Below are positions 24,954 through 61,102 of a stretch of 64,000 nucleotides of DNA, one piece after another. The DNA is taken from the NCBI GenBank assembly GCA_903896545.1, contig CAITYF010000197.1, forward strand, positions 11,665 to 75,664, written 5' to 3'. The translations under genes were made by a program, and so were the position numbers. Source of the DNA: an uncultured Myxococcales bacterium. GTDB lineage: Bacteria; Myxococcota_A; UBA9042. Below the pieces are notes generated by a model that was given only the letters and a program-made list of their open reading frames with translations, made no database searches and was not told where the DNA came from. The stretch's first letter is position 1. Every line of letters begins with the position of its first letter.

Positions 24954-26480
24954 TTGACCAGAGCGTTGCCGCAACGCACTCTGGGCCTGCAATCGGGACG
25001 CTTCCGCCCCGCGCACGGGATCATGGCCGCTAGCACGCCCTTGCCGTTGCACGATTCACGCGACCGTTGGCCGTTGTGGCTGTTCTGCTTGTTGGCGGCA
25101 CCGCTTCTTGTCAACCGGTTGGGACCAGAATTTCTGGACGCGGACACGCTGCTTTCGTCGCTCATGTCGACGCAAAAGGTCACGCTTTTCTACTGGGGGC
25201 AGGAACGCTTGGCCAACGTGCTGCCGTTTATGCTCGCGCCCGTCACCGATCTGGCGCGGAATCAATGGCTGCAGATGACGGCGAACGCCGCGGCGTACCT
25301 GCTGCTTTTGGAAGCGCTGACGCACGTGGCGTGCCAACTGGACGACGCGCCGCCGCCCCGGCTGTACCGACACGTCCTGTTCGCGCTACTCGTGGCGCTG
25401 CCATTCCTCTTCCTTCGGCCTTTTGCGTTGTACCAATTCACGGTCGCGGCTCAGCCCTATTCGCTGTCCTTTCTGTGTCTGACGTGGGCTGCGCTGGCGT
25501 GGCGTCGCCGCGTCGAACAGCCGCTGTTCTGGGTCGCCTGCGGGCCCGCACTTGTCGTGGCCGTCGGGCTCAATCCCGCCGTCTTGCTTCTTGTCGTCGC
25601 GCTTGTCGCGTGGCAGCACCGGGCGGGAAAAGGCCGCGGTTGGATCGGGTTCTTCGTGCTCACGCTGAGCATTTTTGTTGTCTGGACGTTCTTGTCGGTG
25701 ACCTACCCGCTGCGCTCGCCGGCGTCATTCATGACGTTCGCGCCTCAAGGCGTTCCCGCCGCGCTGCGGGCGTCGGCGGGCGAGATCGCCCACGAAGCGC
25801 TGCGTCTGCGGGTCGTGGCGCTTGGCGGTATCGCGGTGACCGTCGCGTGGCCGCAATTGGGGCTGCAGCAGCGCCGGGCAACCCTTTCTGCAATAGCCTT
25901 AGGCTTTGTCTGGTCGTTGTTTTTCTTGACGAATCTCTGGGTTCAACGCAACTCAGCCGCCTTCCGCTACTTCATGCCGCTCATCTTCGCCCCCGTGGTT
26001 TGCACGGCTCTCGCGCTCGCCCACCTGTGCTTTCAGCGGCGCACCGTGTGGCGCGCGCGAGTCGTCCTTCTCGCCTCCACCCTCGTTTTCGCGGGCTTCT
26101 GCGTACGACCCTGGACGCCGCTCGCCTCGTACCACCTCTTCCGGCCCGCCCGCACACCGTTGGCGACGGCGCAACGCCATCAGATCCGCTACTTCGCGGG
26201 TGACTACTGGACCGTCTGGCCCGTAATTTTCCAACTTCGTCTGCAAGGCCATGACGCTCTCGGCGCGTTTTCGCGCGGGATCGCGATGCAAGCGGAGATC
26301 ATGGCTGCGCTTCACAAGGACCAAATCGTGCAGCCACGGACGCTGGCGCAGTGCATCAGTAAGCCGCTGCCGACCTGTCAGGAGCAGCTCGAGAAGGTGA
26401 CGCGGACGTCCTGGCGTCTGGCCGATGTGCCGCCGGAAGGTGAAAGCATCTTTCTGACCCCGGCCACGCCTCCGCTCTAA
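24954..26480 (+). CDS. Polytopic integral membrane protein (more than 10 predicted TM segments; possibly GT-C-like glycosyltransferase fold)
   Basis: Long hydrophobic stretches throughout. The exact start is uncertain (alternative M at ~25023). The stop codon TAA coincides with the end of the 144-bp repeat. Confidence 0.6.
   Translation: MTRALPQRTLGLQSGRFRPAHGIMAASTPLPLHDSRDRWPLWLFCLLAAPLLVNRLGPEFLDADTLLSSLMSTQKVTLFYWGQERLANVLPFMLAPVTDLARNQWLQMTANAAAYLLLLEALTHVACQLDDAPPPRLYRHVLFALLVALPFLFLRPFALYQFTVAAQPYSLSFLCLTWAALAWRRRVEQPLFWVACGPALVVAVGLNPAVLLLVVALVAWQHRAGKGRGWIGFFVLTLSIFVVWTFLSVTYPLRSPASFMTFAPQGVPAALRASAGEIAHEALRLRVVALGGIAVTVAWPQLGLQQRRATLSAIALGFVWSLFFLTNLWVQRNSAAFRYFMPLIFAPVVCTALALAHLCFQRRTVWRARVVLLASTLVFAGFCVRPWTPLASYHLFRPARTPLATAQRHQIRYFAGDYWTVWPVIFQLRLQGHDALGAFSRGIAMQAEIMAALHKDQIVQPRTLAQCISKPLPTCQEQLEKVTRTSWRLADVPPEGESIFLTPATPPL
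25891..25910. repeat. REP-like palindromic motif copy (CAATAGCCTTAGGCTTTGTC) inside the coding sequence
   Basis: 20-nt match to the motif family, lying within the membrane-protein ORF (it encodes SAIALGFV). Confidence 0.4.
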
Positions 26481-26620
26481 ACATGCCTGCCAACACTGGA
26501 GATCAAATGCTGAACACTTGGTGGGCATGTTTAGGCTGCTAGCAGGGGCGCCAAGCTCGCGTCCGTGCAGGTCGACTCGCGGCGACACAAGATATTGGGC
26601 TCCGAGTCAATGCAGGGATG
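26477..26620 (-). repeat. 144-bp MITE-like repeat, copy 1 (inverted relative to copies 2 and 3)
   Basis: 92-96% identical to 47826-47969 and 60959-61102. It contains a 9-bp stem AAACATGCC/GGCATGTTT, and its terminal CTAAACATGCC supplies the stop codon of the upstream gene. Confidence 0.8.
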
Positions 26621-26735
26621 GAGAGCGTCTGGGGCCCGTACACCCCAATTTGTGCGCGCTTGGCGCGGATTCGTTGACGCTCCGGTTACAAATGCACACC
26701 ATATCGCGGGGCGCGAGGCTGCGCCGCACAGGGCC

Positions 26736-27674
26736 ATGGCTCCAGCGCACGCCACTCATCGACCAGAAACACGCCGGCCCCCGGCCGCTCCGGCGGCTGC
26801 GCCGGTTCGCGCCGAGCGTTCGCCAACCCCGGCAGGCTACGGTGCACAGCGCGAAGCTGTGCGTCCACCGGCTGGGCGAACCGCCGGCGTTGCGCCGGTC
26901 GCGTCTTCCGCGGCTGTTGGCTACGATGCACAGCGCGCAGCGGTTCGTCCTGCTGCCCGCCCCGGTGATCTCGCAGCTGCGACGGCGACGCCACAAGTCG
27001 ACATGCACGACGGATTGCGGCCGGCATTGCACGAAGCCGGTGGCGTTGTGCCGTTCATGAAGGCGATGGCGGGCGGTGGAACGGTAGGCGGCATCGGTCA
27101 CGAGAAGTTCAATACGCTGTGGAACCGCCAGGAAAACGAAGACTGGTTGAAGGACCAGTTCCGCGCCGTCAGCCCGAACATGCACGAGTGGATTCCGTCC
27201 AACCAGATTCAGGCGATCGTGGACAAGGCCAAGACGAGCCACGAAGGCCCGAACTGGATCGACCTGCACAACGAGCTCCGGAGCCCAACGTCCCACGTCA
27301 TCTTCCACCCGGCGGCGTCGAGTCATGAAGCGCCGGACGGGACGCTGGTGCTGCACGGCCACGTGGGCGCGATCTATTTGGGCAGTACGCCCCAGATCAA
27401 GGCGCAAGGCACCTTCCACGACGAGTTGCGTGAGACGTTCCTGAGCGCGCCGGACGTGGCGACCGCGGTGGAAGGGCTGAAGACGGTGATGAAGAAGTGG
27501 GTCTGGGATGGCTCGCCGCTGCCCAAGCCGCTGTCGGGCGCGCTGAAGGACAGCATGGGGCGGCCGATCGACGCACAGGCGCTGATGGCCGATCGCTCCG
27601 CGCACTTCACCGATATGCACACGATGTTCGACGCTTTGAAGGCCAAGTACGGCCAGAAGCGCCCCGGCAAGTAG
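26736..27674 (+). CDS. Hypothetical protein with an Arg/Pro/Ala-rich repetitive N-terminal region and a globular C-terminal domain
   Basis: Coding-like C-terminal 230 aa (GHEKFNTLWNRQENEDWLKDQF...). The N-terminus contains the imperfect repeat PAGYGAQREAVRPPAGR / AVGYDAQRAAVRPAARP. The start is uncertain. Confidence 0.45.
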   Translation: MAPAHATHRPETRRPPAAPAAAPVRAERSPTPAGYGAQREAVRPPAGRTAGVAPVASSAAVGYDAQRAAVRPAARPGDLAAATATPQVDMHDGLRPALHEAGGVVPFMKAMAGGGTVGGIGHEKFNTLWNRQENEDWLKDQFRAVSPNMHEWIPSNQIQAIVDKAKTSHEGPNWIDLHNELRSPTSHVIFHPAASSHEAPDGTLVLHGHVGAIYLGSTPQIKAQGTFHDELRETFLSAPDVATAVEGLKTVMKKWVWDGSPLPKPLSGALKDSMGRPIDAQALMADRSAHFTDMHTMFDALKAKYGQKRPGK

Positions 27675-27692
27675 CCGCACCGGAGTTTCTGG

Positions 27693-28343
27693 ATGGCAAC
27701 CGCTGCGGATTCGTCAAAGACTCACGCCGAGACCACGCTTGAACTGCACGACGTCTCCGAGGCGAGCCTGCCGGACGTTCGTGCGCGACTGCTGGCCAAC
27801 GCCGCGACCCTGCGCCGTGTGTCGCTGGTGCAGCCCGGCTTCGCTCGGCCCCTCGACTTGACCGATCTGCCGTGGCACATGCTGGCGCGCTTGCGCAACC
27901 TGTCGCTCCAGCGGTTTCAGGTGCCAGCGTCGCTTCTCGCGCACCCGACTCTCGAGTCGCTGCGGTTGGTGACGTGCCCGATCGTCGGCGCGGAGTCCGT
28001 GCACGTCGGCCCGTCGCTGACCGCGCTTGAACTGGTCGACTGCAATCCGGAAGTCGCAACGCTGCACGTCGATGGTCCAGCGTTGACGTCGTTTGTGTTG
28101 TCGCAGGACGAGGACGCCGCGGAGAGCAACTTCGCCACGGTGCGTTTTGCGTGTCCGGGACTGCAAGCGCTGCGGTTTCGTGCGGCGCTGGCGGTGGACT
28201 TGGTGTTTGTTGGTCCGTTTCCAGCGTTGGCGGCGGCGAACATCCAGCTTCAGGCCGGCGCGTATGGTGGTCCGGTGGTGGATGTTTCTGCCGCCGAATC
28301 CGCCGCGCTCCTCGCTGCGGTCGCGCCGTTTGCAGCGCCTTGA
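27693..28343 (+). CDS. Hypothetical leucine-rich-repeat-like protein
   Basis: Repeated LxxLxLxxC-type segments (LESLRLVTCPI, LTALELVDCNPEV, LQALRFRAAL). Lies 18 nt downstream of the previous gene. Confidence 0.45.
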   Translation: MATAADSSKTHAETTLELHDVSEASLPDVRARLLANAATLRRVSLVQPGFARPLDLTDLPWHMLARLRNLSLQRFQVPASLLAHPTLESLRLVTCPIVGAESVHVGPSLTALELVDCNPEVATLHVDGPALTSFVLSQDEDAAESNFATVRFACPGLQALRFRAALAVDLVFVGPFPALAAANIQLQAGAYGGPVVDVSAAESAALLAAVAPFAAP

Positions 28344-28344
28344 C

Positions 28345-29400: not shown

Positions 29401-29409
29401 GACTCTTCC

Positions 29410-30702: not shown

Positions 30703-31881
<1,179 letters not shown>

Positions 31882-32210: not shown

Positions 32211-33338
32211 ATGCTGCCGATTATTCAGCCGGTTTTTGGTCCCGAAGAAGAGGCCGCGGTGCTCGCTGTGCTGCGTTCCGGCTGGGTTGCGCAAGGTCCG
32301 CACGTCGCTGAGTTTGAGCGCAAAGTCGCGCTCCGTGCAGGCGCCAAGTACGCGGTTGCCGTGACGTCTGCGACGACGGGGCTCCATCTCGCGCTTGTCG
32401 CAGCGGGGATTGGGCCAGGGGACGAGGTCATTGTCCCGTCGCTTTCGTTCATTGCGTCGACCAATGCGGTGTGGATGGTCGGTGCGAATCCGGTTTTTGC
32501 AGACGTCGACGAGGAGTTGCCGATCCTGACTCCAGAAACGGTCGCAGCGGTGTGGACTCAAAAAACGCGGGCCGTGCTGGCCGTGCACCAACTCGGCATT
32601 CCGTGCGAGCGCGACGTGCTCCGCGCGATGTGCGAAGAACGCGGGGCGCGGCTGATCGAAGACGCCGCGTGCGCGTTGGGCTCACTGGCTGACGGTCGCC
32701 CGGTGACTGAAGGCGCCGATCTTGCGGTTTTTTCCTTTCACCCGCGCAAAGTGCTGACGATGGGCGAGGGCGGCGCGGTCACGACCGACAACGCGGATTT
32801 TGCCGAACGCCTGAAGCGCCTACGCAACCACGGCATGACGGTCGCAGCCGACGCGCGGCACGGCAATGCGGTCCGCGAAGGCTTTGCGGAACCGGCGTGG
32901 AACTATCGGCTGACGGACATTCAGGGCGCCATCGGCAGCGTGCAAATGGATCGCCTCGACGCGATCTTGGCTGAACGGCAGCGGATTTGGCAGGGCTATC
33001 GCGCGCGCCTGCACGCGGCCCTGCCGGAGATCCGCTTGCTGACGCCGCAGCCGCACGTGCAGTGGAACGTGCAGACCGGCTGCGTGCGTATCCCCGACGG
33101 GAAGCGCGATTCGGTGTTGAAGGCCTTGAACGACGGTGGGATTGGCGCACGACGCGGCATTCTCGCGGCGCATCTGGAGCCCGCATGGGCACACTGGCCG
33201 CGGACGCAATTGCCCAACTCAGAAGCCTGGGCGCACGACTCGCTCGCGCTGCCCGTGTTTCACGGAATGACGGGCGCGCAGCAAGATGAAGTCGTCCACG
33301 CGCTAGCCTTGGCGCTTGGTTATTTGGAAACGGTATAG
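32211..33338 (+). CDS. DegT/DnrJ/EryC1/StrS family PLP-dependent sugar aminotransferase
   Basis: LSFIASTNAV, the FSFHPRKVLTMGEGGAV Lys region, and general ArnB/DegT-like architecture. Confidence 0.8.
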   Translation: MLPIIQPVFGPEEEAAVLAVLRSGWVAQGPHVAEFERKVALRAGAKYAVAVTSATTGLHLALVAAGIGPGDEVIVPSLSFIASTNAVWMVGANPVFADVDEELPILTPETVAAVWTQKTRAVLAVHQLGIPCERDVLRAMCEERGARLIEDAACALGSLADGRPVTEGADLAVFSFHPRKVLTMGEGGAVTTDNADFAERLKRLRNHGMTVAADARHGNAVREGFAEPAWNYRLTDIQGAIGSVQMDRLDAILAERQRIWQGYRARLHAALPEIRLLTPQPHVQWNVQTGCVRIPDGKRDSVLKALNDGGIGARRGILAAHLEPAWAHWPRTQLPNSEAWAHDSLALPVFHGMTGAQQDEVVHALALALGYLETV

Positions 33339-33610
33339 ACCGCGCCGCCAATTGTCCCAAAGTACAAGCACTTGTCGTCGACCGCGAGCACGCGTTGGAA
33401 CGGCCAGCCGTCCAACTGGCCCATCTCGTTGTAGAGTTCGGTCTCCGTGGACGTCGTCAGGTTCCAACGCGCCAGCGGTCCATTCAGGATCTTGTAGTAC
33501 GCGTTGTCGCCGTCCATCAGCAGGTTGCGGGGGCTGCCCGACGTCGTCTTCACGTGCGTCAGGTTTTGGCCGCTCGTGTCGACGCGCCACAAGCCCGCGT
33601 CCGTATTGGT
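33290..33610. repeat. Left copy of the ~320-bp segmental duplication (partner at 36139-36466)
   Basis: ~97% identical by eye to 36139-36466. It spans the aminotransferase 3' end and the 3' end of the Cys-repeat protein gene. Confidence 0.85.
33320..33610 (-). pseudogene. 3'-terminal fragment of the Cys-repeat / beta-propeller protein gene; the intact copy is at 36175-38583
   Basis: Encodes ...TSGQNLTHVKTTSGSPRNLLMDGDNAYYKILNGPLARWNL...GGAVYTVSK, identical to the C-terminus of the 802-aa protein, and lacks an N-terminal part. Confidence 0.7.
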
Positions 33611-33834
33611 GAACGGTTGGCCGGCGTGAACGGCTGGGGCACGCAGGCAAGTGGTCGCGGCGCGAGGTGGTGCTGCGGCCGCAACCTCCAAGGCGCAAGA
33701 AGGAACGCGCGAACGATGAAACCGCCTGCGCGCACGCACGGCGAGAGGCGAAGCCGGCCGAGAGCTTCAACCGCTTCGACCGTGGCTTGACCCGCCGGTC
33801 GTACTGGCCCATTGTCGACGTCGGAGATTCCGCG

Positions 33835-35070
33835 ATGCTCGGGCGATTATGGATGTTGAGCCTCGTCTTGTGCGCCTCCTGCGGCACCGCGATTCCGATT
33901 GGTGCGACGGATGCGTCCGCCGCGAACGCGACTGACGACGTCGACCTCGGCCTCGCCGACGCAGGGCCAGACGTCGCATTCACCCCTGACATCCCCGCTC
34001 CCGACGCGGTCAGCCCCGACGCGTGCACGAGCAACTGCGCCTGCGGCAACGGCGTCTGCGATGCAGAAGAAACCGTCACTTTGTGCCCCGCCGACTGCGC
34101 GTTTCTCGCCGCGCATACGGCCGGGTCTTGTAGCCAACCCGGCAGTTGGAACGGCTGTCCGTGGGGCTACATCTGCGCGGGGCGGAGCAAGGCTGGCGGC
34201 GGCAACGTCTGTGTGGCGGATTTCGATACGTGGGGCGTCTTGCCTGACGCGCGGGCTGCCAGCGAGTACGTCGACTTTGGCTGGTCTGTGACGGACAGCC
34301 TGACAGGTCTCGAATGGGCCAAAGAGGCGCTGCCGCCGATGCCGTGGGCGGTGGCGCTGAGCGCGTGCACGACACAGACGATCGGCGGTCACACCGACTG
34401 GCGATTGCCAAGCAACGCAGAGTTGCGGACGTTGCTGGACTACGCCAAGGAGTTTCCAGCGGCTACTGCACCGGGGTTGAGCTGGCCCCCGAACTGCATC
34501 ACCGGCGTGACCGACTACTCCACATGGTGCGGCGACCCGTACTGGAGCGACGTCCCCGGTCCGACCTGGAAAAGCGCTTGGGAGCTCGATTTTGCCGACG
34601 CGAGCAACTTGCCCAGCGATCCGACGGCGACGTGGCACGTGCGCTGCGTGCGCGGGGCCGCCTCCGGAGCCAAGTCCCAAGGCGTCGGGGCGCGTTTTGC
34701 CGCAACCGATCAAGGCCAGGTCGTTCTGGATAGGGTCACCGGGTTGCGCTGGCAGATCGGGGAATCGGTCGGCTGGATAGCCCACGCGGCGGCAGAGACT
34801 TGGTGTGCCACGAACGCCGCCGCAGCGCCGGGGGAGGGCTGGCGACTCCCGTCGATACGCGAGCTGACCTCCATCGTCGACCGCCGCCTCACGCAGCCGG
34901 CGATCGACCCGATCTTTGGCACGACGCAGTATTTTCCGCACTGGAGTACAAGTCTGGTTGCCAGGTCTTACGGCGACGGCACGCCACTGCCTTGTTGGTT
35001 GATGGTCGAATTCGCAGTCGGCTTTTCAGATCTTGCCTGCGGAAGCAGCGTCGCCCGCTGCGTCCGCTAA
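33835..35070 (+). CDS. DUF1566 (Lcl C-terminal domain) lipoprotein with a Cys-rich N-terminal region
   Basis: Signal/lipobox LVLCASCGT. Two DUF1566-like modules with TDWRLPSNAELRTLL and GWRLPSIRELTSIV motifs. Confidence 0.7.
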   Translation: MLGRLWMLSLVLCASCGTAIPIGATDASAANATDDVDLGLADAGPDVAFTPDIPAPDAVSPDACTSNCACGNGVCDAEETVTLCPADCAFLAAHTAGSCSQPGSWNGCPWGYICAGRSKAGGGNVCVADFDTWGVLPDARAASEYVDFGWSVTDSLTGLEWAKEALPPMPWAVALSACTTQTIGGHTDWRLPSNAELRTLLDYAKEFPAATAPGLSWPPNCITGVTDYSTWCGDPYWSDVPGPTWKSAWELDFADASNLPSDPTATWHVRCVRGAASGAKSQGVGARFAATDQGQVVLDRVTGLRWQIGESVGWIAHAAAETWCATNAAAAPGEGWRLPSIRELTSIVDRRLTQPAIDPIFGTTQYFPHWSTSLVARSYGDGTPLPCWLMVEFAVGFSDLACGSSVARCVR

Positions 35071-36138: not shown

Positions 36139-36466
36139 GGTGGAAGTCGTCCACGCGCTAGCCTTGGCGCTTGGTTACTTGGAAACGGTATAGACCGCGC
36201 CGCCAATTGTCCCAAAGTACAGGCACTTGTCGTCGACCGCGAGCACGCGTTGGAACGGCCAGCCGTCCAACTGGCCCATCTCGTTGTAGAGCTCGGTCTC
36301 CGTGGACGTCGTCAGGTTCCAACGCGCCAGCGGTCCATTCAGGATCTTGTAGTACGCGTTGTCGCCGTCCATCAGCAGGTTGCGGGGGCTGCCCGACGTC
36401 GTCTTCACGTGCGTCAGGTTCTGGCCACTCGTGTCGATCCGCCACAAGCCCGCGTCCGTGTTGGTG
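36139..36466. repeat. Right copy of the ~320-bp segmental duplication
   Basis: Carries a remnant of the aminotransferase 3' end (encoding VVHALALALGYLETV) plus the genuine 3' end of the Cys-repeat protein gene. Confidence 0.85.
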
Positions 36467-38583
36467 AACGACGCGACCCAATAGACGTAGTTGTTGACGT
36501 AAGAAACGCCGTATCGGTGTGAACCGCCGCCTTTGGTCGTGTCGCCCAGCAGCGTGCTCACGACGCCGCCTGCCGAGACCTTCTCCAGCGCTTGTGGCGT
36601 GTATTGGCTTGACGTGTAGATCGCGGTGCCGTCCGTTGCCAGACCGAGATTCGCCTCGGTCAGCGGCAGCGACGTCAGCACATTATTCTGCGCCAGGTCG
36701 TAAAAGCCGATGCCCGCTTTGTTCACGCCAGCGGCGTTGGATGCGTACCACGCGACGAGATCGCCGTACACAATCGCCTCCGTCAGCGACTTGAGGCCGA
36801 AGGCCAGCTGAACGACGTCGACCGCGCAGCCTTGCCCGTCGCAGTCGATCACGTACCCGTCCAGCGCGCCGCTGCCAAACGCGCCCGCGTCGCCGATGAG
36901 GATGCGCGTACCGTGCGGCACCAAGGAAATCGGCGCGATCAGTTGATCGACGATCGTCTTCATGTTCGCGTTGGCCGTGCCGCAGCCCGCCAGCTTCGGG
37001 CAGGAGACGACCTTGCCCCACTTGTTGCCGCCTGGGTCGCGCACGCCAAAGATGACGCGGTCGTCCATGACGGTGACGGCCGAGACCGAGCCGATCGCGT
37101 CGGGGTAATCCAACAGCAGTCGCGGCGTCGCGTTGCACACCGGCTTGGGGCAGCCGTCCACGCCGACGCACTGACCCTGCGCGTTGCACGCGTCCGCGGT
37201 GGTGCAGGCGACGCCGTCATCACACGATGTGCCGAACGTCACGATTTCATTCTTGCACAGACCCGACTTCGGGTTGCACGAATCCGTCGTGCACGGGTTC
37301 TTGTCGTCGCAGTCTTTCAACACGCCAGAGGCGCAGAGACCTGCCACGCACGTGTCCACCGCGGTGCATGCGTCGTTGTCCGTACACGTCGTGCCGTTGC
37401 TGACGTCGGTGTTGATGCAGCCATCGGCCATCGAGCACGTGTCCGTCGTGCACGCGTTGCCGTCGCCGCACGCCGCGTCGCTGCCGACGTGGCTGCACTG
37501 GCCGGTCGCGTCGCAGGTATCGGCGGTGCAATCGAGCTTGTCGTCGCACGTCGCCTTGGCTGGCGTGCAGGAGCCCAAGTCGCAGAATTCGTTTTGGGTG
37601 CAAGGGTCGCCGTCGTCGCACAGTCCAATCTTGTTTACGTTGCCGCAGCCGCTGTCCAGGCTGCACGCGTCGGTGGTGCACTGGTTGCCGTCCTCGCACG
37701 CCGCGTCACTGGCAACGTGGCTGCATTGCCCGGCGGCGTCGCAACTGTCGGTCGTGCACGCCAACTTGTCGTCGCACTTCTGCTTGGCGGGTACGCACGT
37801 CGTGCCGTCGCAGTAGTCACCTTGCGTGCAGCTATCGCCGTCGTCGCACAGGCCGACCATCGGGGCGTTGCTGCAGCCACCGTTGAGCGTGCAGGTGTCG
37901 GTCGTGCACTGGTTGCCGTCGTCGCACGCCGCGTTCACCGCGGTGTGGTCGCACTTGCCGGCGACATTGCATTCGTCCGTGGTGCACGGCAGCCCGTCGT
38001 CGCACTTCGCCGTGGGTCCCACGCACGTGGCGTTGTCGCATGCGTCGTTGATCGTGCACGCGTTGCCGTCATCACAGGGTGTACCGCCCGCCGCCGTTGC
38101 CTTGCCGCACGCGCCGTTTTCGCAGGTATTCCACTGGCACGCCGTGTCGGTCCCGCCGCAATCCGCGGGCGTGATGCACTCGGGCGCGGCCACGTCCGGG
38201 CCCGTGTCTTCTTGCGCGACATCCGGCGGCACGTCCGCTTCCGTATCGGGTCCCGCATCCGGCGCAACGTCGGCCGCAACGTCCGGCTCGACATCTGGCG
38301 CCACGTCAGGTGCGACGTCCGTCGCTGCATCGGGTGCGACGTCCGCATCTTCCTTGGCCGCAACGTCCGCGTCCTGACTGACGACGTCCGAAGGGGGGAA
38401 CTCCGCGCTGGCCACGTCGGTCGTTCCGCTCGCGTCGGTGCCTTCTTGGGCGTCGGCGTCTTCCGTTGCATCGTCCAGCGTCGTGTACTGCGCGAGCGCC
38501 GCGATGTCATTGCCACACGATGAAAGTCCCGTTGCGAGCACAGCGCTCAAGCTCAAGACACACAAAGATTGCGTTTTCCACAT
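36175..38583 (-). CDS. Secreted lipoprotein with D(V)APD acidic repeats, tandem myxobacteria-type Cys-rich repeats (CDDGNxCTxDxC) and a C-terminal beta-propeller-like domain
   Basis: Lipobox LSSCGND. Repeats DVAPDAATDVAPDVAPDVEPDVAADVAPD. At least 8 tandem ~38-aa Cys modules (CDDGNQCTTDTCTLNGGCSN...). The plus-strand ORFs covering it are antisense artefacts. Confidence 0.8.
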   Translation of the reverse strand: MWKTQSLCVLSLSAVLATGLSSCGNDIAALAQYTTLDDATEDADAQEGTDASGTTDVASAEFPPSDVVSQDADVAAKEDADVAPDAATDVAPDVAPDVEPDVAADVAPDAGPDTEADVPPDVAQEDTGPDVAAPECITPADCGGTDTACQWNTCENGACGKATAAGGTPCDDGNACTINDACDNATCVGPTAKCDDGLPCTTDECNVAGKCDHTAVNAACDDGNQCTTDTCTLNGGCSNAPMVGLCDDGDSCTQGDYCDGTTCVPAKQKCDDKLACTTDSCDAAGQCSHVASDAACEDGNQCTTDACSLDSGCGNVNKIGLCDDGDPCTQNEFCDLGSCTPAKATCDDKLDCTADTCDATGQCSHVGSDAACGDGNACTTDTCSMADGCINTDVSNGTTCTDNDACTAVDTCVAGLCASGVLKDCDDKNPCTTDSCNPKSGLCKNEIVTFGTSCDDGVACTTADACNAQGQCVGVDGCPKPVCNATPRLLLDYPDAIGSVSAVTVMDDRVIFGVRDPGGNKWGKVVSCPKLAGCGTANANMKTIVDQLIAPISLVPHGTRILIGDAGAFGSGALDGYVIDCDGQGCAVDVVQLAFGLKSLTEAIVYGDLVAWYASNAAGVNKAGIGFYDLAQNNVLTSLPLTEANLGLATDGTAIYTSSQYTPQALEKVSAGGVVSTLLGDTTKGGGSHRYGVSYVNNYVYWVASFTNTDAGLWRIDTSGQNLTHVKTTSGSPRNLLMDGDNAYYKILNGPLARWNLTTSTETELYNEMGQLDGWPFQRVLAVDDKCLYFGTIGGAVYTVSK

Positions 38584-47813: not shown

Positions 47814-47825
47814 GGGCAAGCTACA

Positions 47826-47969
47826 CATCCCTGCATTGACTCGGAGCCAAATATCTTGTGTCGCCGCGAGTCGGCCCGCAGGGACGCGAGCTTGGCGACC
47901 CACCTAGCAGCCCAAACATGCCCACCCAGCGTTCAGCATTTGATCTCCAGTCCTGGCAGGCATGTTTAG
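47826..47969 (+). repeat. 144-bp MITE-like repeat, copy 2
   Basis: CATCCCTGCATTGACTCGGAGCC...GGCAGGCATGTTTAG. Its terminal TTTAG supplies the TAA stop (minus strand) of the gene at 47966-48970. Confidence 0.8.
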
Positions 47970-48970
47970 CGGGTCGCGTGCGCGCGGGCCACACGTCCCA
48001 GCAAATCATCGATGTCGTGCTGCAACGTCGCATCCGCGGACGTTCGCACAGCAGCCAGGCGTGCCGGCAGGTCGGGCAGATCCGCCAGCTGCAGCGACTG
48101 CACCACGCGCTCGCGCGACTCGCCCTGCGTTTTGGCCAGAAGCGGCAGCAGGGCGTCCGTCACGCGCTGACGGACGCGCAGGCCGTCCTCCGCGCGCACG
48201 CGACCCAGCGCCTGCCACGACCAACTCGACGCAATCGCGCCCATGGCCTGAACGATCGTCCGCTGTGTCGCGTCATCTTTGGCTGTCGCCAGCGCAGACA
48301 CCAACAACTGCGCGGCATCCGTGCGCTTGCACACCCCCAGACCGGCGATCGCCGCCGTGTACAGCGGGTCGTCCGCGCGGAGGTGCTGCTGCAGCGCCTG
48401 CAGTTCCAGCGCGCCCCCCAGACGCCCCAAAGCTTCCGCCGTCGCACGCGCCACGGTCATTTGCCGACCCAGCGGCGTGAGCAGCTCCTGACGACCGCGC
48501 GCCTGTTGCCACAGCGTGTGCAGAACGCCGCGCGCCCGGGTGTCGCGCAACGTGCCCACAGCCTCGAGGAGACCGACCAACAGCGCGCGCTCTTCCTTCG
48601 CGCGGTTCACCGCGTCCGTCGACAAACCTTGCGGCGACCAATCCAACGCCAGCGCGCTCAACATCGGCAGCAGGCCGGCAGTACCGAGGGCGCGCAATTC
48701 GCGGCTGCAGTTCGGCTCTGGCGTACGCGCCGCCATCCAGCCGTCGGGACGACATCCCTTGGCCACCGCCACGATGTCGTACGCCGCCGGACGCGCCAGA
48801 CGATCCGCCATCACCGCATTTTGCAGCGCCGTGCGGTCCGCAGGTCCCATCTGCGCCGCCTGAATCGCCAACCCTGCGGGCTCGGCTGCCAGCGCCGGTG
48901 CTGCCGCGCTCAGCGAGCCAACCGTCAGCGCCAGGAAAATCATCTTCTGCTTCATCATCTTGTGCCTCAT
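47966..48970 (-). CDS. Hypothetical secreted alpha-helical (HEAT/ARM-like) repeat protein
   Basis: Signal peptide MIFLALTVGSLSAAAPALA, followed by Leu/Ala-rich helical repeats. Confidence 0.5.
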   Translation of the reverse strand: MRHKMMKQKMIFLALTVGSLSAAAPALAAEPAGLAIQAAQMGPADRTALQNAVMADRLARPAAYDIVAVAKGCRPDGWMAARTPEPNCSRELRALGTAGLLPMLSALALDWSPQGLSTDAVNRAKEERALLVGLLEAVGTLRDTRARGVLHTLWQQARGRQELLTPLGRQMTVARATAEALGRLGGALELQALQQHLRADDPLYTAAIAGLGVCKRTDAAQLLVSALATAKDDATQRTIVQAMGAIASSWSWQALGRVRAEDGLRVRQRVTDALLPLLAKTQGESRERVVQSLQLADLPDLPARLAAVRTSADATLQHDIDDLLGRVARAHATR

Positions 48971-51345: not shown

Positions 51346-51496
51346 GGCAATCTCGCGGGCAAATGCGTAAACGAAGGCACAGCGCACCGCAGCAATCGCG
51401 GTGCGGCATGCACCCTAGCTGTTTTGTGACGACCGTGCAACGACGCAACGCGTCACCCGCAGAAGTTCGTGAGGGTGACGCGCGGCATCAGTGTGA

Positions 51497-54808: not shown

Positions 54809-57613
54809 ATGCACGTCATCGAAACCCGTGTCTATCAAGGTCCTAATCTTTACGCGCACTTCCCGGTGATGCGGTGGACGGTCCGGCTTGGCCCGTTGGA
54901 GGACAAGCCGTCTGCCGAGATTCCGGGGTTCGTCGATGCCCTTTTGGAACACGTGCCGACGCTCTGGGAGCACACGTGCAGTCCCGGTGTGCGCGGCGGT
55001 TTTGTGCAGCGTTTGAATCAGGAAGGCGGCACGTGGATGGGGCACGTGCTCGAACACGTCGCGATCGAACTGCAGAACTTGGCCGGCGCGCGCGTGAGCT
55101 TTGGCAAGACGCGTGGCTCCGGGCACCACGGTGAGTACCACGTCGTTTTTGAGTATGAAGAAGCGCGTGTGGCGCAGGCAGCGGCGGAGCTCGCCATGAA
55201 GCTGCTGCACCATCTCGTGCCCGCGGAACTGGTTCCCGACGCTGAGCGCGATCCCGATTTTCACTTCCAGACAGAGTTGGACGATCTCATTCGTCAGGCA
55301 CAGCGCCGCGCTCTGGGGCCATCCACGGGCAGCCTGGTGCGCGCCGCGGAAGCGCGTGGCATCCCGTGGATTCGCTTGAACGACCACTCGCTGGTGCAGT
55401 TTGGCCACGGCAAGTTGCAAAAGCGCATCCAAGCGACGGTGACGAGCGAAACCCGGCACATCGCTGTGGAGATCGCCAGCGACAAGCAGGAAACCAACAA
55501 GATCCTCGCCGACCTGGGACTCCCGGTGCCGCGTCAGGAGATGGTCTATTCGGTAGAGGAAGCGGTCAAAGCGGCGCGTTCGATTCGCTATCCGGTGGTG
55601 GTCAAGCCGTTGAACGCGAACCACGGCCGCGGCGTGTCGATCAACCTGACTTCACCCGAACAGGTGGCGACGGCGTTTGAGAAGGCGCAAGAACACAGCC
55701 GCGCCGTGTTGGTCGAGACATTTGTCGCAGGCTTTGATCATAGAATGCTGGTGATCAACGGAGAATTGGTCGCAGTGGCCAAGCGGGTTCCCGGCCACGT
55801 GGTCGGCGACGGCTCGCACACGATCGCGGAGCTGGTCGACATCGTGAACAGCGATCCGCGGCGCGGCATCGGCCACGAAAAAGTGCTGACCCGGCTCGCG
55901 TTTGACCACCAAGCCGAGAGGCTCATGGAGCAGGCGGGCGTGACGCGCGAGTCGGTCTTGCCTGCGGGTGAAATCCTGTATTTGCGGTCGACCGGTAACC
56001 TGTCGACGGGCGGCACGGCGATCGATCTGACCGATCAAGTGCACCCGGACAACGCGGAAATGGCGGTTCGCGTGGCCGGCGCAATCGGTCTGGACGTGAT
56101 CGGTGTAGACTTTTTGACTCAGGACATGACGCGCAGCTATCGCGAAGTCGGCGGCGCGATCTGTGAGGTCAACGCTGCGCCTGGCTTCCGCATGCACGTG
56201 GCGCCGAGCGAAGGCAAACCGCGCGACGTGGCCGGCAAAGTGATCGACATGCTGTTCCCGCCTGGGACGCCGTCGCGCATTCCGATCGCCGCGATTACCG
56301 GCACGAACGGCAAGACGACGACGAGCCGCATGCTCGCGCACATCTTCAAGTTGCGCAGTGAAATCGTGGGTTTGACGACGACGGACGGCGTGTACATCGA
56401 CGGCCAGCGCACCGTGGAAGGCGACATGACGGGGCCGATGAGCGCGCAGATGGTGCTGCGTGATCCGAAGGTCACGGTCGCCGTGCTGGAAACGGCGCGC
56501 GGCGGCATGTTGCGGTCCGGCTTGGGCTACCGCTGGCCGGACGTGGCGTGCTGTCTGAACGTGAGCGCGGACCATCTGGGACTCGGCGGCGTCGACACGC
56601 TCGATCAGTTGGCCGCGGTGAAGCGGATTCCGATCGAAGTGGCGCGTGAAGCCGTTGTGCTGAACGCGGACGATGAACTCTGCCTGGCCATGGCGGATCA
56701 CAGCCAAGCGAAGCACGTCTGGTACGTCACGACGAATCCGAACCACGCGCTGGTCCGCGAGCACATTCGCGCGGGCGGCAAAGCGGTGGCGCTGGAAGCG
56801 GGCGTAAACGGCCAGATGATTGCGCTTTACGATCGCGGCCAGCACCTGCCGCTGCTGTGGACGCATTTGATTCCGGCGACGCTGGAAGGCAAGGCGATCC
56901 ACAACGTGCAGAACGCGATGTTCGCCGCCGCGATGGCCTACGCGATGCACGTGAAGTTGGATGACATTCGCCACGGCTTGCGGACGTTTGACTCGACGTT
57001 CTTCCAGTCGCCCGGACGCATGAACGTCTACGACGCGCTCGGCTTCAAGGTGCTGCTGGATTACGGTCACAATCCGGCGGCGGTCAAGGCGATGTGCACG
57101 CTGGTCGACAATCTGGTGGCGGGCGGCGTGCTCGCAACGGGCGGCAAGCGCGTGTGTGTTCTGGCGGCACCCGGTGACCGACGCGATGAAGATATTTTGG
57201 AAGTCGCTCGCATCGCGGCGCATTCGTTTGACGAGATCATCTTGCGTCGCGACGACAACCCGCGCGGGCGAGGTGACCGTGAAGTGCCCGAGCTCCTGCA
57301 AAAAGGCCTCATCGCCAGCGGTTTCCCGGCGGACAAGCTGACCATCATCACGCACGAAGTGGACGCGCTGCAGGACGCGCTGGACCGCTGCAAGCCCGGC
57401 GACTTGCTGTTGGTGTTCTGTGACAAGGTGACGCGTTCGTGGAAGCAAATCATCTACCACCATCAGCAGCAGGGTGGGCGACCGCCGGTGGAGGACGAGA
57501 CGCCTCAGGCCGTGGCCCAGCAGCCGCAGGAAGATGAAACGCCGCTGAGTACGTCCGGGCTTGTGCGCGATGCGCGTGGCGTGCGGCTGGCGCGTCCTGA
57601 AGAGGCGGATTGA
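54809..57613 (+). CDS. cphA: Cyanophycin synthetase (N domain + ATP-grasp G domain + Mur-ligase-like M domain)
   Basis: N-domain MHVIETRVYQGPNLYAHFPVMRWTVRLG...; ATP-grasp region (VVVKPLNANHGRGV, RMLVINGELVAVAKRVPGHVVGDGSHTI); Mur-ligase P-loop ITGTNGKTTTSRM. 934 aa. Confidence 0.85.
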   Translation: MHVIETRVYQGPNLYAHFPVMRWTVRLGPLEDKPSAEIPGFVDALLEHVPTLWEHTCSPGVRGGFVQRLNQEGGTWMGHVLEHVAIELQNLAGARVSFGKTRGSGHHGEYHVVFEYEEARVAQAAAELAMKLLHHLVPAELVPDAERDPDFHFQTELDDLIRQAQRRALGPSTGSLVRAAEARGIPWIRLNDHSLVQFGHGKLQKRIQATVTSETRHIAVEIASDKQETNKILADLGLPVPRQEMVYSVEEAVKAARSIRYPVVVKPLNANHGRGVSINLTSPEQVATAFEKAQEHSRAVLVETFVAGFDHRMLVINGELVAVAKRVPGHVVGDGSHTIAELVDIVNSDPRRGIGHEKVLTRLAFDHQAERLMEQAGVTRESVLPAGEILYLRSTGNLSTGGTAIDLTDQVHPDNAEMAVRVAGAIGLDVIGVDFLTQDMTRSYREVGGAICEVNAAPGFRMHVAPSEGKPRDVAGKVIDMLFPPGTPSRIPIAAITGTNGKTTTSRMLAHIFKLRSEIVGLTTTDGVYIDGQRTVEGDMTGPMSAQMVLRDPKVTVAVLETARGGMLRSGLGYRWPDVACCLNVSADHLGLGGVDTLDQLAAVKRIPIEVAREAVVLNADDELCLAMADHSQAKHVWYVTTNPNHALVREHIRAGGKAVALEAGVNGQMIALYDRGQHLPLLWTHLIPATLEGKAIHNVQNAMFAAAMAYAMHVKLDDIRHGLRTFDSTFFQSPGRMNVYDALGFKVLLDYGHNPAAVKAMCTLVDNLVAGGVLATGGKRVCVLAAPGDRRDEDILEVARIAAHSFDEIILRRDDNPRGRGDREVPELLQKGLIASGFPADKLTIITHEVDALQDALDRCKPGDLLLVFCDKVTRSWKQIIYHHQQQGGRPPVEDETPQAVAQQPQEDETPLSTSGLVRDARGVRLARPEEAD

Positions 57614-59256
57614 TGAAGGCGAGCAATGCACGGCGCTTGACTGGACCTAGCTGGTGGCTGGATGCGGCGGGCGCGGCGGTGGAAGTTGCTTTTGCCGCCG
57701 ATGACGACCCGGACTGGCTCTTCGCTGATTGGTCTCGGCAGATCTTCGATATTGCTAAGCTTTTGGTTTGGCCGTCGCCGCAATTTGGTCAAACCCGCGG
57801 ATCGGGTGTCGCAACCTGGGCGTTCACCGCACCGCTCGATCAGCTTGGTACGGCAGCGGAATTGGCGGAACAAGCATGCAGTGAGGCCGCGTGGGCTTTG
57901 GTCGCCCCTGCCGAGGCGAATCCGCGCGCGATGGCCTGGATCGCGGCGGCGGAAGCCCACAATCTGCCGTGGCTTTGGGATGAAGACGCGCTGACTTTGG
58001 GCCTCGGCGCACACAGCCAGACTTGGCCGCTCGCCGAAGTGAATGAAACGCTGCCCGATTTGCACGGCCTCGCGACGATTCCGCACGTGCTGATTACGGG
58101 AACCAACGGCAAGACGACAACAGCGCGCATGATCGCGCGAATCCTGCGCCATCACGGGCTTTTTGCGGGCAACACGTCGACCGATGGGTTGATGCTCGAC
58201 GGTCAATTGGTCACACCAGGCGATTGGACGGGACCGGGCGGTGCGCGCCAAGTGCTGCGGAATACCCGCGTGCAAGCGGCGGCGCTCGAGACGGCGCGCG
58301 GTGGGCTTCTGCGGCGCGGATTGGCGTCGCACTGGGCTGACGCTGCGGTTGTGACCAACGTCAGCGATGACCATTTGGACCCGCAGGTTCCGTCTGAAGC
58401 AGCGATGGCCGACGCGAAGCTCGCGATTCGGCGGGGAATTCGTGCCGGAGGCCTGCTGATTCTGAACGCCGATTGCGCGCCCTTGGTCGCCGCCGCGCAA
58501 CGCCTGCGGTTGCCCGATGGCGCCTACGCGCTGGCGTGGTTTGGCGCATCGCGGGCGAGCGCGACCGCGCTATCGGGGGCGCTCCACGCGTGGTCGGAAG
58601 ACTCCGCACTCGTCTTGCGCGACGCGAACGGCGACCACCGCTTCGCGGAACTGGCCGCGGTGCCTTCTACTTTTGACGGACATGCGCCGCACAACGTCGC
58701 CAATGCCTTGGCGTCTGCTCTGGCAGCTCGCGCGATGGCCGTTCCGCTGCCGACCATCGCTGGCGGGCTGCGCGCATTTGGCTCGACGATCGCCGACAAT
58801 CCCGGTCGCGCCAATGTGATGCACCTGAACGGCGCGACGATCCTGATCGATTTTGCCCATAATCCCGATGGTGTGCGCCAAGTTGCCGCGCTGGTCGATG
58901 CGTGGCCATCGGTGTCGCGAACGCTGCTCGTGGGGCAGGCGGGCGATCGCACGGACGACCTGATGCACGCGTTGGTCGTCGCGTCGTTGGCGTTTCGTCC
59001 GGACCGCGTTGTGCTGAAAGACACGGATCACTACCTGCGCGGTCGGCAAAAGCACGAGATCCCCGAAGTGCTGCTGCGGTTTTACCTGCGCGAAGGGGTT
59101 CCCGCGGACGCGATGTCCATCACGCACGATGAGGCGTCGGGCATCGACGCGGCGCTGCAGGACGCGCTGCCCGGACACTTGCTGATTCTGCTGATTCACG
59201 ACGATTTTCCCGCGGCGGTCGCGCAACTGCGCGCGGCGGGGGCGGTGGAACCGTGA
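57610..59256 (+). CDS. Cyanophycin-synthetase-like stand-alone Mur-ligase (M-domain) protein lacking the ATP-grasp domain (cphA'-type)
   Basis: ITGTNGKTTTARM P-loop, and RGGLLRRGLASHWADAAVVTNVSDDHL paralogous to the cphA ARGGMLRSGLGYRWPDVACCLNVSADHL. No ATP-grasp motifs. The start overlaps the cphA stop. Confidence 0.7.
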   Translation: MMKASNARRLTGPSWWLDAAGAAVEVAFAADDDPDWLFADWSRQIFDIAKLLVWPSPQFGQTRGSGVATWAFTAPLDQLGTAAELAEQACSEAAWALVAPAEANPRAMAWIAAAEAHNLPWLWDEDALTLGLGAHSQTWPLAEVNETLPDLHGLATIPHVLITGTNGKTTTARMIARILRHHGLFAGNTSTDGLMLDGQLVTPGDWTGPGGARQVLRNTRVQAAALETARGGLLRRGLASHWADAAVVTNVSDDHLDPQVPSEAAMADAKLAIRRGIRAGGLLILNADCAPLVAAAQRLRLPDGAYALAWFGASRASATALSGALHAWSEDSALVLRDANGDHRFAELAAVPSTFDGHAPHNVANALASALAARAMAVPLPTIAGGLRAFGSTIADNPGRANVMHLNGATILIDFAHNPDGVRQVAALVDAWPSVSRTLLVGQAGDRTDDLMHALVVASLAFRPDRVVLKDTDHYLRGRQKHEIPEVLLRFYLREGVPADAMSITHDEASGIDAALQDALPGHLLILLIHDDFPAAVAQLRAAGAVEP

Positions 59257-60101
59257 ACGTGGATGCGTTGCCGGAGCTCGAAGCGCGCTGGTCCGCCGCA
59301 TTCGCTGCGGGGCAGGAAGCGGTGGGCGAACCCGGCGTCCTGGCCTGCACGTACGTGCTGCGCGGGGCCATGCGGACGGCCGATCGCCGCTGGCGTCAGG
59401 GCGTCCGAACGCCCGTTTTGCCCGTTTCCATTGACGATTTTGCCGTCAGGACGCTCGCCGAACGCCACGTCTATCGGGTTGAATCGCAGGTCGCCGAGTG
59501 CTTGGTTGCCTGGGCGCACCGCAACCGTCGCCTATTTCTACGCTTTGACATCCCGACGCCTGCTGAGCTTTTGGTCTACCAAGCGCGCGGCGAGCGCATC
59601 GTCTCGCTGTTGCCCGAAGGCGTGCCGACGGGACTCGAAGCGAGCAACTTCGAGTTTGCGCTGCACGATCTCTGTCATGCCGAGAAGTTCTTTGCGCCCG
59701 AACACTTCCACGGTCAGGTCGGCTTCTTCGCCACGGTCGAGTCAATGCTGCGCGGTGCCGCGTGGGCCCAACTGACGCGCGATTTTGACGCTGCTTGGCC
59801 AGCCGAAGTGGACCACGTCGTGGCCGACATGAACGGCTCACCGCTCTTTCTTTTTGCCGCGTTGCGGCGCAAGGTCATGAACGCCGCGTTGCGGGTTGGT
59901 CAGGATCAGTTCGCAGCACGGGCGGGGTTGTGTGAGGTATTGAACCTCCCGCCGAACGTGGCGCGGTCCGGAGAACAGTTTTCCGTGCATCCCGACGTCG
60001 ATCCGGTTGAAATCCGCTACCACGCCGACATGCTGCAAGGGCATTTTGAGGCACTTGGGCAGCAGATCATGGCCACGCAGCTCGGCGCGGAACCGCAGTG
60101 A
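59253..60101 (+). CDS. Hypothetical protein co-transcribed with the cyanophycin synthetase genes
   Basis: The GTG start overlaps the previous stop (GTGA). Possible metal site ALHDLCHAEKFFAPEHFH. No confident family. Confidence 0.5.
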   Translation: MNVDALPELEARWSAAFAAGQEAVGEPGVLACTYVLRGAMRTADRRWRQGVRTPVLPVSIDDFAVRTLAERHVYRVESQVAECLVAWAHRNRRLFLRFDIPTPAELLVYQARGERIVSLLPEGVPTGLEASNFEFALHDLCHAEKFFAPEHFHGQVGFFATVESMLRGAAWAQLTRDFDAAWPAEVDHVVADMNGSPLFLFAALRRKVMNAALRVGQDQFAARAGLCEVLNLPPNVARSGEQFSVHPDVDPVEIRYHADMLQGHFEALGQQIMATQLGAEPQ

Positions 60102-60111
60102 AGGAGTTTTC

Positions 60112-60957
60112 ATGACTACACCCCGCAAAATCGTCGTAACCGGCGCTTCGACAGGCTTTGGGCGCTGCATCGCAGAAGCCGCGCTCGCCCAGGGGTGGTC
60201 CGTGCTGGGCACCGTTCGCAAGGACACCGACGCCGCCGACTTGCGCGCCAAGGGCATTGCCGTCGCGCAGTTTGACCTCGCGGTGCCCGAATCGATCGGC
60301 CCTGGCTGCGCGCAAATTCTCGCGTGGTGCGAGGGCAATCTGGACGCGCTGGTCAACAACGCCGGCTCGACTTGGCCCGGTCCCATCGAGCTCGTGACGA
60401 TGGCTGATCTGCGTGTGCAGTTTGAAGTGAACACTTTTGGCCACATCGACGTGACGCAGCGCCTGCTTCCGGCGATCCGCGCAGGGCATGGCCATGTGCT
60501 CTTCATCTCGTCGGACTCGACCACGTTGACGCCGCCGATCGTCGGCACCTACGCGGCGTCCAAGCGCGCCATCGAGGCGCTCGCCGAGTCGCTGGCTCAG
60601 GAAACGGCGGGGCAGGGCATTCACGTGTCGATCGTCGCGCCCGGACCGTATCAGACCGCGATTTGGGGGACCTCGATTCCCCGCGGCGAGGCGTACCTGG
60701 AAACCGCCGATCCGCGGCTGCAGCTTTACCGCACGCTGGCCGAACAGTTGGGCAGAGCGTCCACCAACCGCCCGCTGGGCGATCCGATGGACCTCGCGCA
60801 GGTCGTGCTGAAGCAGTTGAACGACCCGAATCCACCGCTGCGCACGGTGGCGCCGTTTCAGTCGCGGCTGGTCAGCTGGGTGCGTGCGCTCATCGGCCCG
60901 CGGCGCTTCCACAAGCTGCTGCGTTTTGTCATCGCCAAGCAAGGTGCAGCGAGCTAG
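60112..60957 (+). CDS. SDR family oxidoreductase
   Basis: AAGGAG RBS 6 nt upstream. VVTGASTGFGRCIA, NNAG, YAASKRAIE (YxxxK). Confidence 0.8.
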   Translation: MTTPRKIVVTGASTGFGRCIAEAALAQGWSVLGTVRKDTDAADLRAKGIAVAQFDLAVPESIGPGCAQILAWCEGNLDALVNNAGSTWPGPIELVTMADLRVQFEVNTFGHIDVTQRLLPAIRAGHGHVLFISSDSTTLTPPIVGTYAASKRAIEALAESLAQETAGQGIHVSIVAPGPYQTAIWGTSIPRGEAYLETADPRLQLYRTLAEQLGRASTNRPLGDPMDLAQVVLKQLNDPNPPLRTVAPFQSRLVSWVRALIGPRRFHKLLRFVIAKQGAAS

Positions 60958-60958
60958 A

Positions 60959-61102
60959 CATCCCTGCGTTGACTCGGAGCCAAATATCTTGTGTCGCCGC
61001 GAGTCGGCCCGCAGGGACGCGAGCTTGGCGACCCAGCTAGCAGCCTAAACATGCCCACCCGGCGTCCAGCATTTGATCTCCAGTCTTGGCAGGCATGTTT
61101 AG
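60959..61102 (+). repeat. 144-bp MITE-like repeat, copy 3
   Basis: Starts 2 nt after the SDR TAG stop. Its terminal TTTAG provides the TAA stop (minus strand) of 61099-61572. Confidence 0.8.

Follow-up and report, generated by a model that had tools for sequence, protein, structure and literature searches.

A TA-flanked miniature inverted-repeat element at stop codons in an uncultured freshwater Myxococcota genome

Introduction

How does a short non-coding repeat come to lie, copy after copy, with the same end against the stop codon of a gene? The question is raised by a 64,000-nt stretch of DNA from an uncultured Myxococcales bacterium (GenBank assembly GCA_903896545.1, contig CAITYF010000197.1, positions 11,665 to 75,664 of the forward strand; the whole stretch is referred to here as the window), in which an earlier note described a hairpin-bearing repeat in three copies, each flush with a TAA stop codon. 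The note likened the repeat to a miniature inverted-repeat transposable element (MITE), and proposed either an origin from the IS200/IS605 family of insertion sequences (IS) or a role as a terminator resembling repetitive extragenic palindromic (REP) sequences and bacterial interspersed mosaic elements (BIMEs).

Most described bacterial MITEs are A+T-rich. They are shorter than 200 bp, have terminal inverted repeats (TIRs) and a terminal TA (PMC2229807), and are associated with target duplication and with transcripts that form stable stem-loops (PMC2229807, PMC5896051). The RUP element of Streptococcus pneumoniae is proposed to be moved by IS630-Spn1 (PMC2229807); members of the IS630 family target TA dinucleotides, which become duplicated, and the preferred site of IS630 itself is the TA in CTAG, according to a passage of PMC2170065 that cites Tenzen & Ohtsubo 1991. 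An association with gene ends has a precedent in the Coxiella burnetii MITEs QMITE1 and QMITE2, whose copies extend 1-50 bp into the 3′ ends of functional genes (PMC5896051).

Here, we compare five copies of the repeat from two genomes. The repeat is a new MITE family of a well-known kind of element, and its association with stop codons is real, and is explained by the choice of target together with selection. We consider it probable, with reservations set out below, that the element was moved in trans by a TA-duplicating DDE transposase of the IS630/Tc1-mariner type with a preference for CTAG.

Results

Five copies of one element in two genomes

The three window copies lie at 26477-26620 (copy 1, inverted), 47826-47969 (copy 2) and 60959-61102 (copy 3), and BLAST and alignment bear out both these coordinates and the identities of ~92-96% estimated earlier by eye (92% for copy 1 against copies 2 and 3, and 96% for copy 2 against copy 3, with E-values of 1e-56 to 1e-64 between copies). 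Neither BLAST (word size 7), nor a motif search, nor an nhmmer profile found a further copy or fragment in the 64-kb window. Searching 185,579 species genomes for an invariant 18-mer returned 13 loci, 11 of them chance 18-mers and two of them real, full-length copies that are 86-90% identical; both are in one metagenome-assembled genome (MAG), uncultured Myxococcales bacterium MJ-time_bin-1663 (CAIYBN01), at the loci L002 and L011. The search in relatives that the earlier note had suggested thus yielded two extra copies, each with a real gene ending at the same TAA. The flanks of L002 and L011 are unrelated to the window and the loci are non-syntenic, and similarity among the five copies stops sharply at the same 150 nt. 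The description as MITE-like holds, with the same element at two loci in another genome, and the statistics on target consensus and orientation given below refer to these n=5 copies from two genomes.

Metagenome scans with a 23-mer and an 18-mer gave no real copy, two scans of viral_contigs gave no copy, and BLAST against plasmids and phages gave no match to the repeat. Short contigs reached through the window-edge proteins added ~3.6 kb with no copy, and the cphA loci of more distant relatives (L041, L042) are not syntenic and hold no copy by BLAST or nhmmer.

The five-copy alignment places the left end 5-6 nt past the boundary first proposed (at 26626, 47820/21 and 60953/54), so that the 144-bp unit of the original description is too short on that side. 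The copies of the window, as located by alignment, BLAST and nhmmer, and those of the second genome are as follows.

26477..26626, + strand: copy 1, full extent, in the CTAAACATGCC-first sense orientation (nhmmer full-length match 26477-26626, E 7.7e-50); flanking C 26477, TA 26478-26479, element proper 26480-26622, far-end TA degenerated to GA 26623-26624
47820..47969, − strand: copy 2, full extent; flanking C 47821, left TA 47822-47823, element proper 47824-47966, right TA 47967-47968, flanking G 47969
60953..61102, − strand: copy 3, full extent; flanking C 60954, left TA 60955-60956, element proper 60957-61099, right TA 61100-61101, flanking G 61102
L002 1981-2128 and L011 6498-6646: the full-length copies of MJ-time_bin-1663

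Terminal inverted repeats and TA flanks

Over its 150 columns the alignment runs from GCTA-N-ACAT... to ...ATGTT-TAG. The element proper is 143 bp long (147 bp with a TA on each side), and its end-type is written TA-AACATGCCTGCC. The repeat had been described as having no obvious terminal inverted repeats, which is incorrect: imperfect TIRs of ~30 nt are present, with 22 matches in 32 and two 1-nt gaps when the first 32 nt are compared with the reverse complement of the last 32. None of 5000 shuffles scores as well, and 0-3 of 5000 random 32-mers from the window do so. Because the match runs past the local palindromes, it reflects a true TIR and is not a by-product of two similar hairpins.

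47824..47855, + strand: left TIR of copy 2, CACATCCCTGCATTGACTCGGAGCCAAATATC, the first 32 nt (equivalents: copy 3 60957-60988; copy 1 26591-26622)
47935..47966, + strand: right TIR of copy 2, the reverse complement of the last 32 nt being AACATGCCTGCCAGGACTGGAGATCAAATGCT (equivalents: copy 3 61068-61099; copy 1 26480-26511)

A TA is present at the stop-codon end in 5/5 copies and at the opposite end in 4/5, the exception being copy 1, the most diverged, with GA; TA makes up 1.2% of dinucleotides in this window of 63.7% G+C. The base outside the left TA is C in all five copies, and that outside the right TA is G in four and C in L002. The complete context C-TA...TA-G is thus found in copies 2, 3 and L011, with C-TA...TA-C in L002.

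Two longer target duplications were considered and rejected. The left and right four bases (CTAC/TTAG, CTAG/TTAG, CTAT/TTAC and CTAT/TTAG) differ, which rules out a duplication of 4 bp, and three bases agree in copy 3 only, which rules out one of 3 bp, leaving the 2-bp TA as the only duplication compatible with the flanks. In our reading the TA was probably duplicated and does not belong to the element.

The same bases bear on whether the MITE could derive from another TA-using DDE family (the IS5 family, with its IS427, IS1031 and IS5 groups, or PIF/Harbinger-like elements). A few IS5-family members also duplicate 2 bp. Sequences resembling (C/T)TA(G/A) are present at both sides of the element, the IS5-derived MITEPsy1 inserts at CTAG or YTAA (PMC3189936), and assignment to a family needs the parent element; yet MITEPsy1 duplicates 4 bp at its CTAG target (PMC3189936), a length that is excluded here, 3 bp fits copy 3 only, and duplication of a 2-bp TA is the signature of IS630/Tc1-mariner elements. 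We regard such an origin as unlikely.

The element provides the stop codons of real genes

In 3/3 window copies an open reading frame (ORF) with coding-type G+C content at third codon positions terminates at the TAA within CTAAACATGCC, and the two copies of the second genome likewise end a gene, so that the proposal that the terminus supplies the stop codon is confirmed and extended. The genes concerned, with the one convergent on copy 3, are these.

24954/25023..26480, + strand: membrane protein stopped by copy 1 (TAA 26478-26480), also called in a public assembly
47966..48958/48970, − strand: HEAT-like protein stopped by copy 2 (TAA 47968..47966)
61099..61572/61677, − strand: Cys-rich repeat protein stopped by copy 3 (TAA 61101..61099)
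60007/60112..60957, + strand: short-chain dehydrogenase/reductase (SDR) convergent on copy 3, with its TAG at 60955-60957 formed by TA and the first element base G
L002 1127..1984: GT2 glycosyltransferase stopped by the L002 copy
L011 6643..7926: NfrA_C-domain protein stopped by the L011 copy

The genes reading into the TAA are real, as judged by Pfam domains or orthologs (HEAT_2, GT2, NfrA_C and a conserved membrane protein), and the window genes that end at the TAA also appear in public annotations of the same population. The same element end faces the upstream gene in 5/5 copies. Copy 3 had been thought to start after the SDR stop, which is not so: the TAG of SDR sits within the conserved CTA-N left terminus. 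Part of the use of TAA as a stop in this genome is thereby explained: of the 11 TAA stops in the analysed gene set, three are made by the element.

Copies 1, 2 and L011 (3/5) sit between co-directional genes. The gene downstream of copy 1 is ~376 nt away, and an SD-ATG (Shine-Dalgarno sequence and start codon) follows 55 nt downstream of the L011 copy; the genes either side of copy 2, now 151 nt apart instead of 7-10 nt, are probably co-transcribed. The other two lie between convergent genes, with copy 3 occupying the whole gap and the opposite stop 119 nt away from the L002 copy.

47813, − strand: ATG of the next gene after copy 2, 7 nt past the CTAG

One public annotation starts this 416-aa gene at an ATG (47826-47828, − strand) within the element end CAGGGATGTGTAGC. 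Its native start is the ATG at 47813, followed by a signal-peptide-like N-terminus, and the element here misleads start calling.

Wherever public contigs of the window's population extend to these sites, the gaps between the genes are of element size. Several end inside the element, among them two that stop within copy 3, one after 26 nt (L032 2937-2962) and the other after 65 nt (L034 1349-1413), as expected for a multi-copy repeat, and these assembly breaks hint at many copies per genome. In practical terms, the repeat interrupts metagenome assemblies, gives rise to spurious ORFs and leads start-codon prediction astray.

An orthologous site without the element

The earlier note had proposed a comparison with empty sites, and for copy 2 such a site was available in L030, a syntenic relative anchored on the neighbouring cyanophycin synthetase (CphA 88% identical; DNA ~72-75% identical over window 47.1-63.2 kb). 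Copy 2 is absent from L030, in which the stop of the HEAT-like gene is separated from the next ATG by 10 nt (ctc TGA gctcacccac ATG), as compared with 151 nt in the window, and the C-termini of the two HEAT-like proteins coincide in residue position (ARAHAAL* in L030 and ARAHATR* in the window). Removing the element and one TA from the window yields cgC-TAG-cttgccc-ATG, with a stop at the ancestral position and a 7-nt spacer; if both TAs are taken out, or neither, that position has no stop. Because only the removal of one TA restores the stop, one TA is read as ancestral and the other as duplicated. Duplication of the TA would then be the most parsimonious reconstruction, not an observation, the comparison being with a diverged relative rather than an exact empty site.

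The junctions of the other two window copies are less informative. For copy 1 the orthologs are only ~50% identical and their C-termini differ by 5 residues, so that the junction says nothing; in L038, a more distant relative, the membrane-protein gene and a convergent E1-beta gene are 3 nt apart (L038 2745-2753). For copy 3, L030 is without both the SDR and the Cys-rich genes. The window has 1.86 kb at 26481-28344, absent in L038, that comprises copy 1 and two hypothetical genes (223 and 216 aa) before the convergent E1-beta (transketolase-like) gene.

CTAG is rare, and the opposite orientation would usually lose the stop

The tetranucleotide CTAG occurs 16 times in the window, as compared with 214 expected by composition (a 13-fold depletion) and 42 by a Markov estimate, and 4/16 occurrences are in or at element copies. 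This rarity helps to explain the bias toward gene ends, and TAG stop codons with a C or G before them make up much of what tolerated sites there are. Most of the remaining CTAG occurrences are in a GCTAG/CTAGC context, and each window copy has an internal GCTAGC.

Outside the elements, coding sequence accounts for 624 TA dinucleotides of the window, stop codons for 26 and other intergenic sequence for 99, and stop codons therefore provide 26 of the 125 non-disruptive TA sites. Random targeting of such sites would place three copies of three at stops with p ~0.009, and five of five with p ~4e-4; given these low values, either a narrower target, (C/G)TAG, or selection is required. Four copies keep an intact left TA, and the target rebuilt from these is S-TAG (CTAG three times, GTAG for L002). 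The left end of copy 1 is degenerate and does not allow its original stop to be reconstructed.

Had the element been inserted in the opposite orientation, the upstream gene would read 5 codons into copies of the window type (to CAT-TGA), and more than 30 into those of the L002/L011 type. The opposite orientation thus usually loses the stop, which provides a simple selective explanation of the 5/5 orientation bias.

Folding of the element

The three internal inverted motifs described earlier are all present in the copies, and the RNA folding that had been suggested reveals strong hairpins, with z-scores of -3.6 to -4.5 for the sense strand. An inverted copy of each TIR tip recurs inside the element (AACATGCCCACC matching the right end, GCAGGGACG the left), and two folds of similar energy result, either two hairpins or one end-to-end stem. 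In copy 2 the hairpins are the following.

47913..47968, − strand: stop-proximal hairpin, formed by the terminal 14 nt of the right TIR and its internal inverted copy AACATGCCCACC; stem of 14 bp including two G-U pairs, with the UAA of the gene in its 5′ arm
47825..47887, − strand: distal hairpin, GCGTCCCTGCG...GACTCG...CGAGTC...GCAGGGATGT, formed by the left TIR and its internal inverted copy

The hairpin loops are of 28-45 nt. A protein-coding element was considered and rejected: the longest frame, which encodes the GMFRLLAGSPSS peptide and is open in the window copies as first described, is interrupted in L002 by an indel of 1 nt. When the open frames were all joined into one chimeric query, no protein among 5.8 billion clusters matched any frame of the element.

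The strong subterminal hairpins are one point in favor of mobilisation by an HUH/Y1 enzyme, in which a single-stranded miniature element – either of the IS200/IS605 type or a REP/REPIN moved by a REP-associated tyrosine transposase (RAYT) – would be recognised by its hairpin and inserted 3′ of a short target such as (C)TAA with no duplication. The fold is also strand-asymmetric with many G-U (G-T) pairs, as if one strand were the substrate, and the empty site would look nearly the same, with TAA for TAG. The earlier note had pointed to an HUH transposase-like gene in the window, which does contain a Y1_Tnp-like ORF with an HxH motif.

13244-14311, + strand: HUH-like ORF with the motif SNHYHAL (Y1_Tnp 19.3 bits, E 0.0013, cut-off 23 bits)

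That part of the claim stands in a weak form; the gene scores below the Pfam threshold and has no link to the element, lying 12 kb from the nearest copy with no element motif or obvious partner repeat near it. Moreover, TIRs of ~30 nt that extend past the palindromic stems, and a TA on both sides, are features that IS200/IS605 elements do not have. Over 21-35 kb, copy 1 stands in the reverse orientation to copies 2 and 3, and no switch in GC skew separates them; the copies follow gene direction rather than one replication strand. By itself the skew is uninformative as to a replication-strand bias. REPs are imperfect palindromes of 20-40 nt with a GTAG-type head and a flanking RAYT gene, and the loops of 28-45 nt found here are unlike theirs. 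The IS200/IS605 origin first suggested is thus not supported, and we consider an HUH-mobilised element quite unlikely, more so than an origin from another DDE family.

The folding bears equally on whether the repeat is a functional RNA module of 3′ untranslated regions (UTRs) – a REP/BIME-like stabiliser, a terminator lacking U residues or a processing site – that selection has kept after stops, with mobility secondary. All five copies point the same way with respect to the upstream gene, three of the five are flanked by co-directional genes, the sense RNA has the folding z-scores given above and places the stop codon inside a 14-bp stem, and the insertions appear to be fixed across all of the population's public contigs. 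The stop-proximal 40 nt are identical between genomes (in copy 3 and L011), though the copies are otherwise ~88% alike. Set against this, RNAalifold on the five copies finds no compensatory change among 45 pairs, with some one-sided changes and several broken cells; no Rfam family matches in the window at gathering thresholds, permissive ones giving one 16-bit chance hit; and neither a sigma-70 promoter consensus nor an integration host factor (IHF) site was detected. The terminator proposed earlier fails in particular, with no terminator-like site on either strand of 47700-48100, no U-tract and no covariation. Preservation of the stop explains the orientation bias more simply, and the orthologous junction in L030 works without the element. 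We therefore think it improbable that an RNA role is primary. A related scheme makes the element a stop-codon-seeking module that would find its site by recognition of (C/G)TAG, or by hairpin-mediated action on a single strand, and whose RNA would have been co-opted as an orientation-locked 3′-UTR element controlling termination, mRNA stability or downstream decoupling; to this, too, we give little credence.

Discussion

A model for insertion at stop codons

Insertion of a MITE by a DDE transposase of the IS630/Tc1-mariner type is the explanation that we favor for the TIRs, the TA flanks and the stop codons together, with both the family and its CTAG preference suggested by analogy with characterized elements. 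The transposase, acting in trans, would insert the element at a TA and duplicate it. Its target would be the TA of a TAG stop codon preceded by C or G, with the reading frame left intact, and the gene would then read S-TA followed by the invariant A of the element's right end. The presence of this A beside the TA means that the rebuilt stop is TAA. The opposite end would instead yield TA-N (N being G, C or T) and keep a stop only when N is G, as is the case in copy 3 only, whose TAG serves as the stop of the convergent SDR gene. Selection for preservation of the stop would make the same end face the upstream gene each time. At the site of copy 3, the two convergent genes would originally have overlapped by the palindrome CTAG.

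Several points weigh against this explanation. No DDE transposase or autonomous element with matching ends was found among the window ORFs (by Pfam) or in 42 fetched loci. Just five copies underlie the target consensus and the orientation bias, and the sole empty site comes from a relative that is ~72% identical in DNA and has TGA as its stop. The base inside the left TA varies (C, G, T, T, T) among copies that are otherwise 88-96% identical, which the DDE model does not predict. Finally, folding is markedly better for the strand that runs with the upstream gene (-62 to -66.5 kcal/mol, z -3.6 to -4.5) than for its complement (-48 to -60), a difference due to approximately eight G-U pairs common to all copies; this asymmetry hints that a constraint may act at the level of RNA or of single-stranded DNA, which the DDE model does not explain. 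Two hairpins of this strength may also affect the upstream mRNA and, if they do act on it, the element would be another case of MITE domestication.

Relationship to known elements

The present repeat is a previously undescribed MITE family in uncultured freshwater Myxococcota. Like RUP and other MITEs derived from IS630/Tc1-mariner elements, it is small, non-coding and dispersed, with imperfect TIRs and TA flanks, and its C-TA...TA-G context agrees with the CTAG target that IS630 prefers. It differs from the IS630-derived MITEs in being G+C-rich, in the internal inverted copies of its TIR tips, by which two hairpins compete with an end-to-end stem, and in that all known copies are in stop codons; neither the window nor the fetched loci yielded a cognate IS or transposase.

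The resemblance to QMITE1 and QMITE2 lies in those QMITE copies that reach one to a few bases into the 3′ ends of functional genes, with protein length little changed, and in the very stable stem-loops formed by QMITE transcripts (PMC5896051). There is no sequence relation, the host is different, and the overlap described here is always exactly the stop codon and always at the same end. The Correia repeats (CREE) of Neisseria and the CIR elements of Caulobacter (PMC2229807) are also small intergenic repeats flanked by TA, and the 5′ and 3′ halves of CIR fold independently into two stem-loops, much as in the two-hairpin fold described here, but neither has sequence similarity to the present element, in which no IHF site or promoter motif was detected. 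Points in common with the IS200/IS605 miniatures and REP/REPIN-RAYT systems are the subterminal hairpins, a location outside genes at their 3′ ends and the presence of a Y1-like ORF in the window; unlike them the element has true TIRs, TA on both flanks, long loops and a unit of 143 bp.

On this reading, the element is a clean example of how a transposon targeting TA/CTAG in a G+C-rich, CTAG-depleted genome can be funnelled into stop codons, converting TAG to TAA with the protein unchanged.

Other features of the window

The gene beside copy 3 belongs to a Cys-rich secreted protein and contains tandem or periodic repeats with units of 69/144 nt (61105-61511). A second Cys-rich secreted-protein gene, of 802 aa (36175..38583, − strand), has 228-nt units that correspond to Dicty_CTDC repeats (37269-38034). 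Its 3′ end (the last ~90 codons and ~30 nt downstream of them) is duplicated in a 300-nt direct repeat, 98% identical, at 33288-33587 and 36143-36442. This repeat brackets a 2.5-kb segment with an Lcl_C-domain gene (33667..35070, + strand), and looks like an insertion or duplication at the end of the 802-aa gene.

Two paralogous stretches (19960-20256 and 22213-22510), 71-78% identical, contain small ORFs without Pfam hits (19970..20404 and 22275..22658) that flank a radical-SAM gene (20783..22087), and may represent an arrangement of precursor peptides with a radical-SAM enzyme. The cyanophycin synthetase (934 aa) used as an anchor above is followed by a second, Mur-ligase-type CphA2-like gene; upstream, on the other strand, are genes for a homolog of protein-arginine deiminase (PAD) and for a Glucodextran_B-domain protein of 1017-1038 aa, and the block (54809-59256 and 49135-51345) is syntenic in L030.

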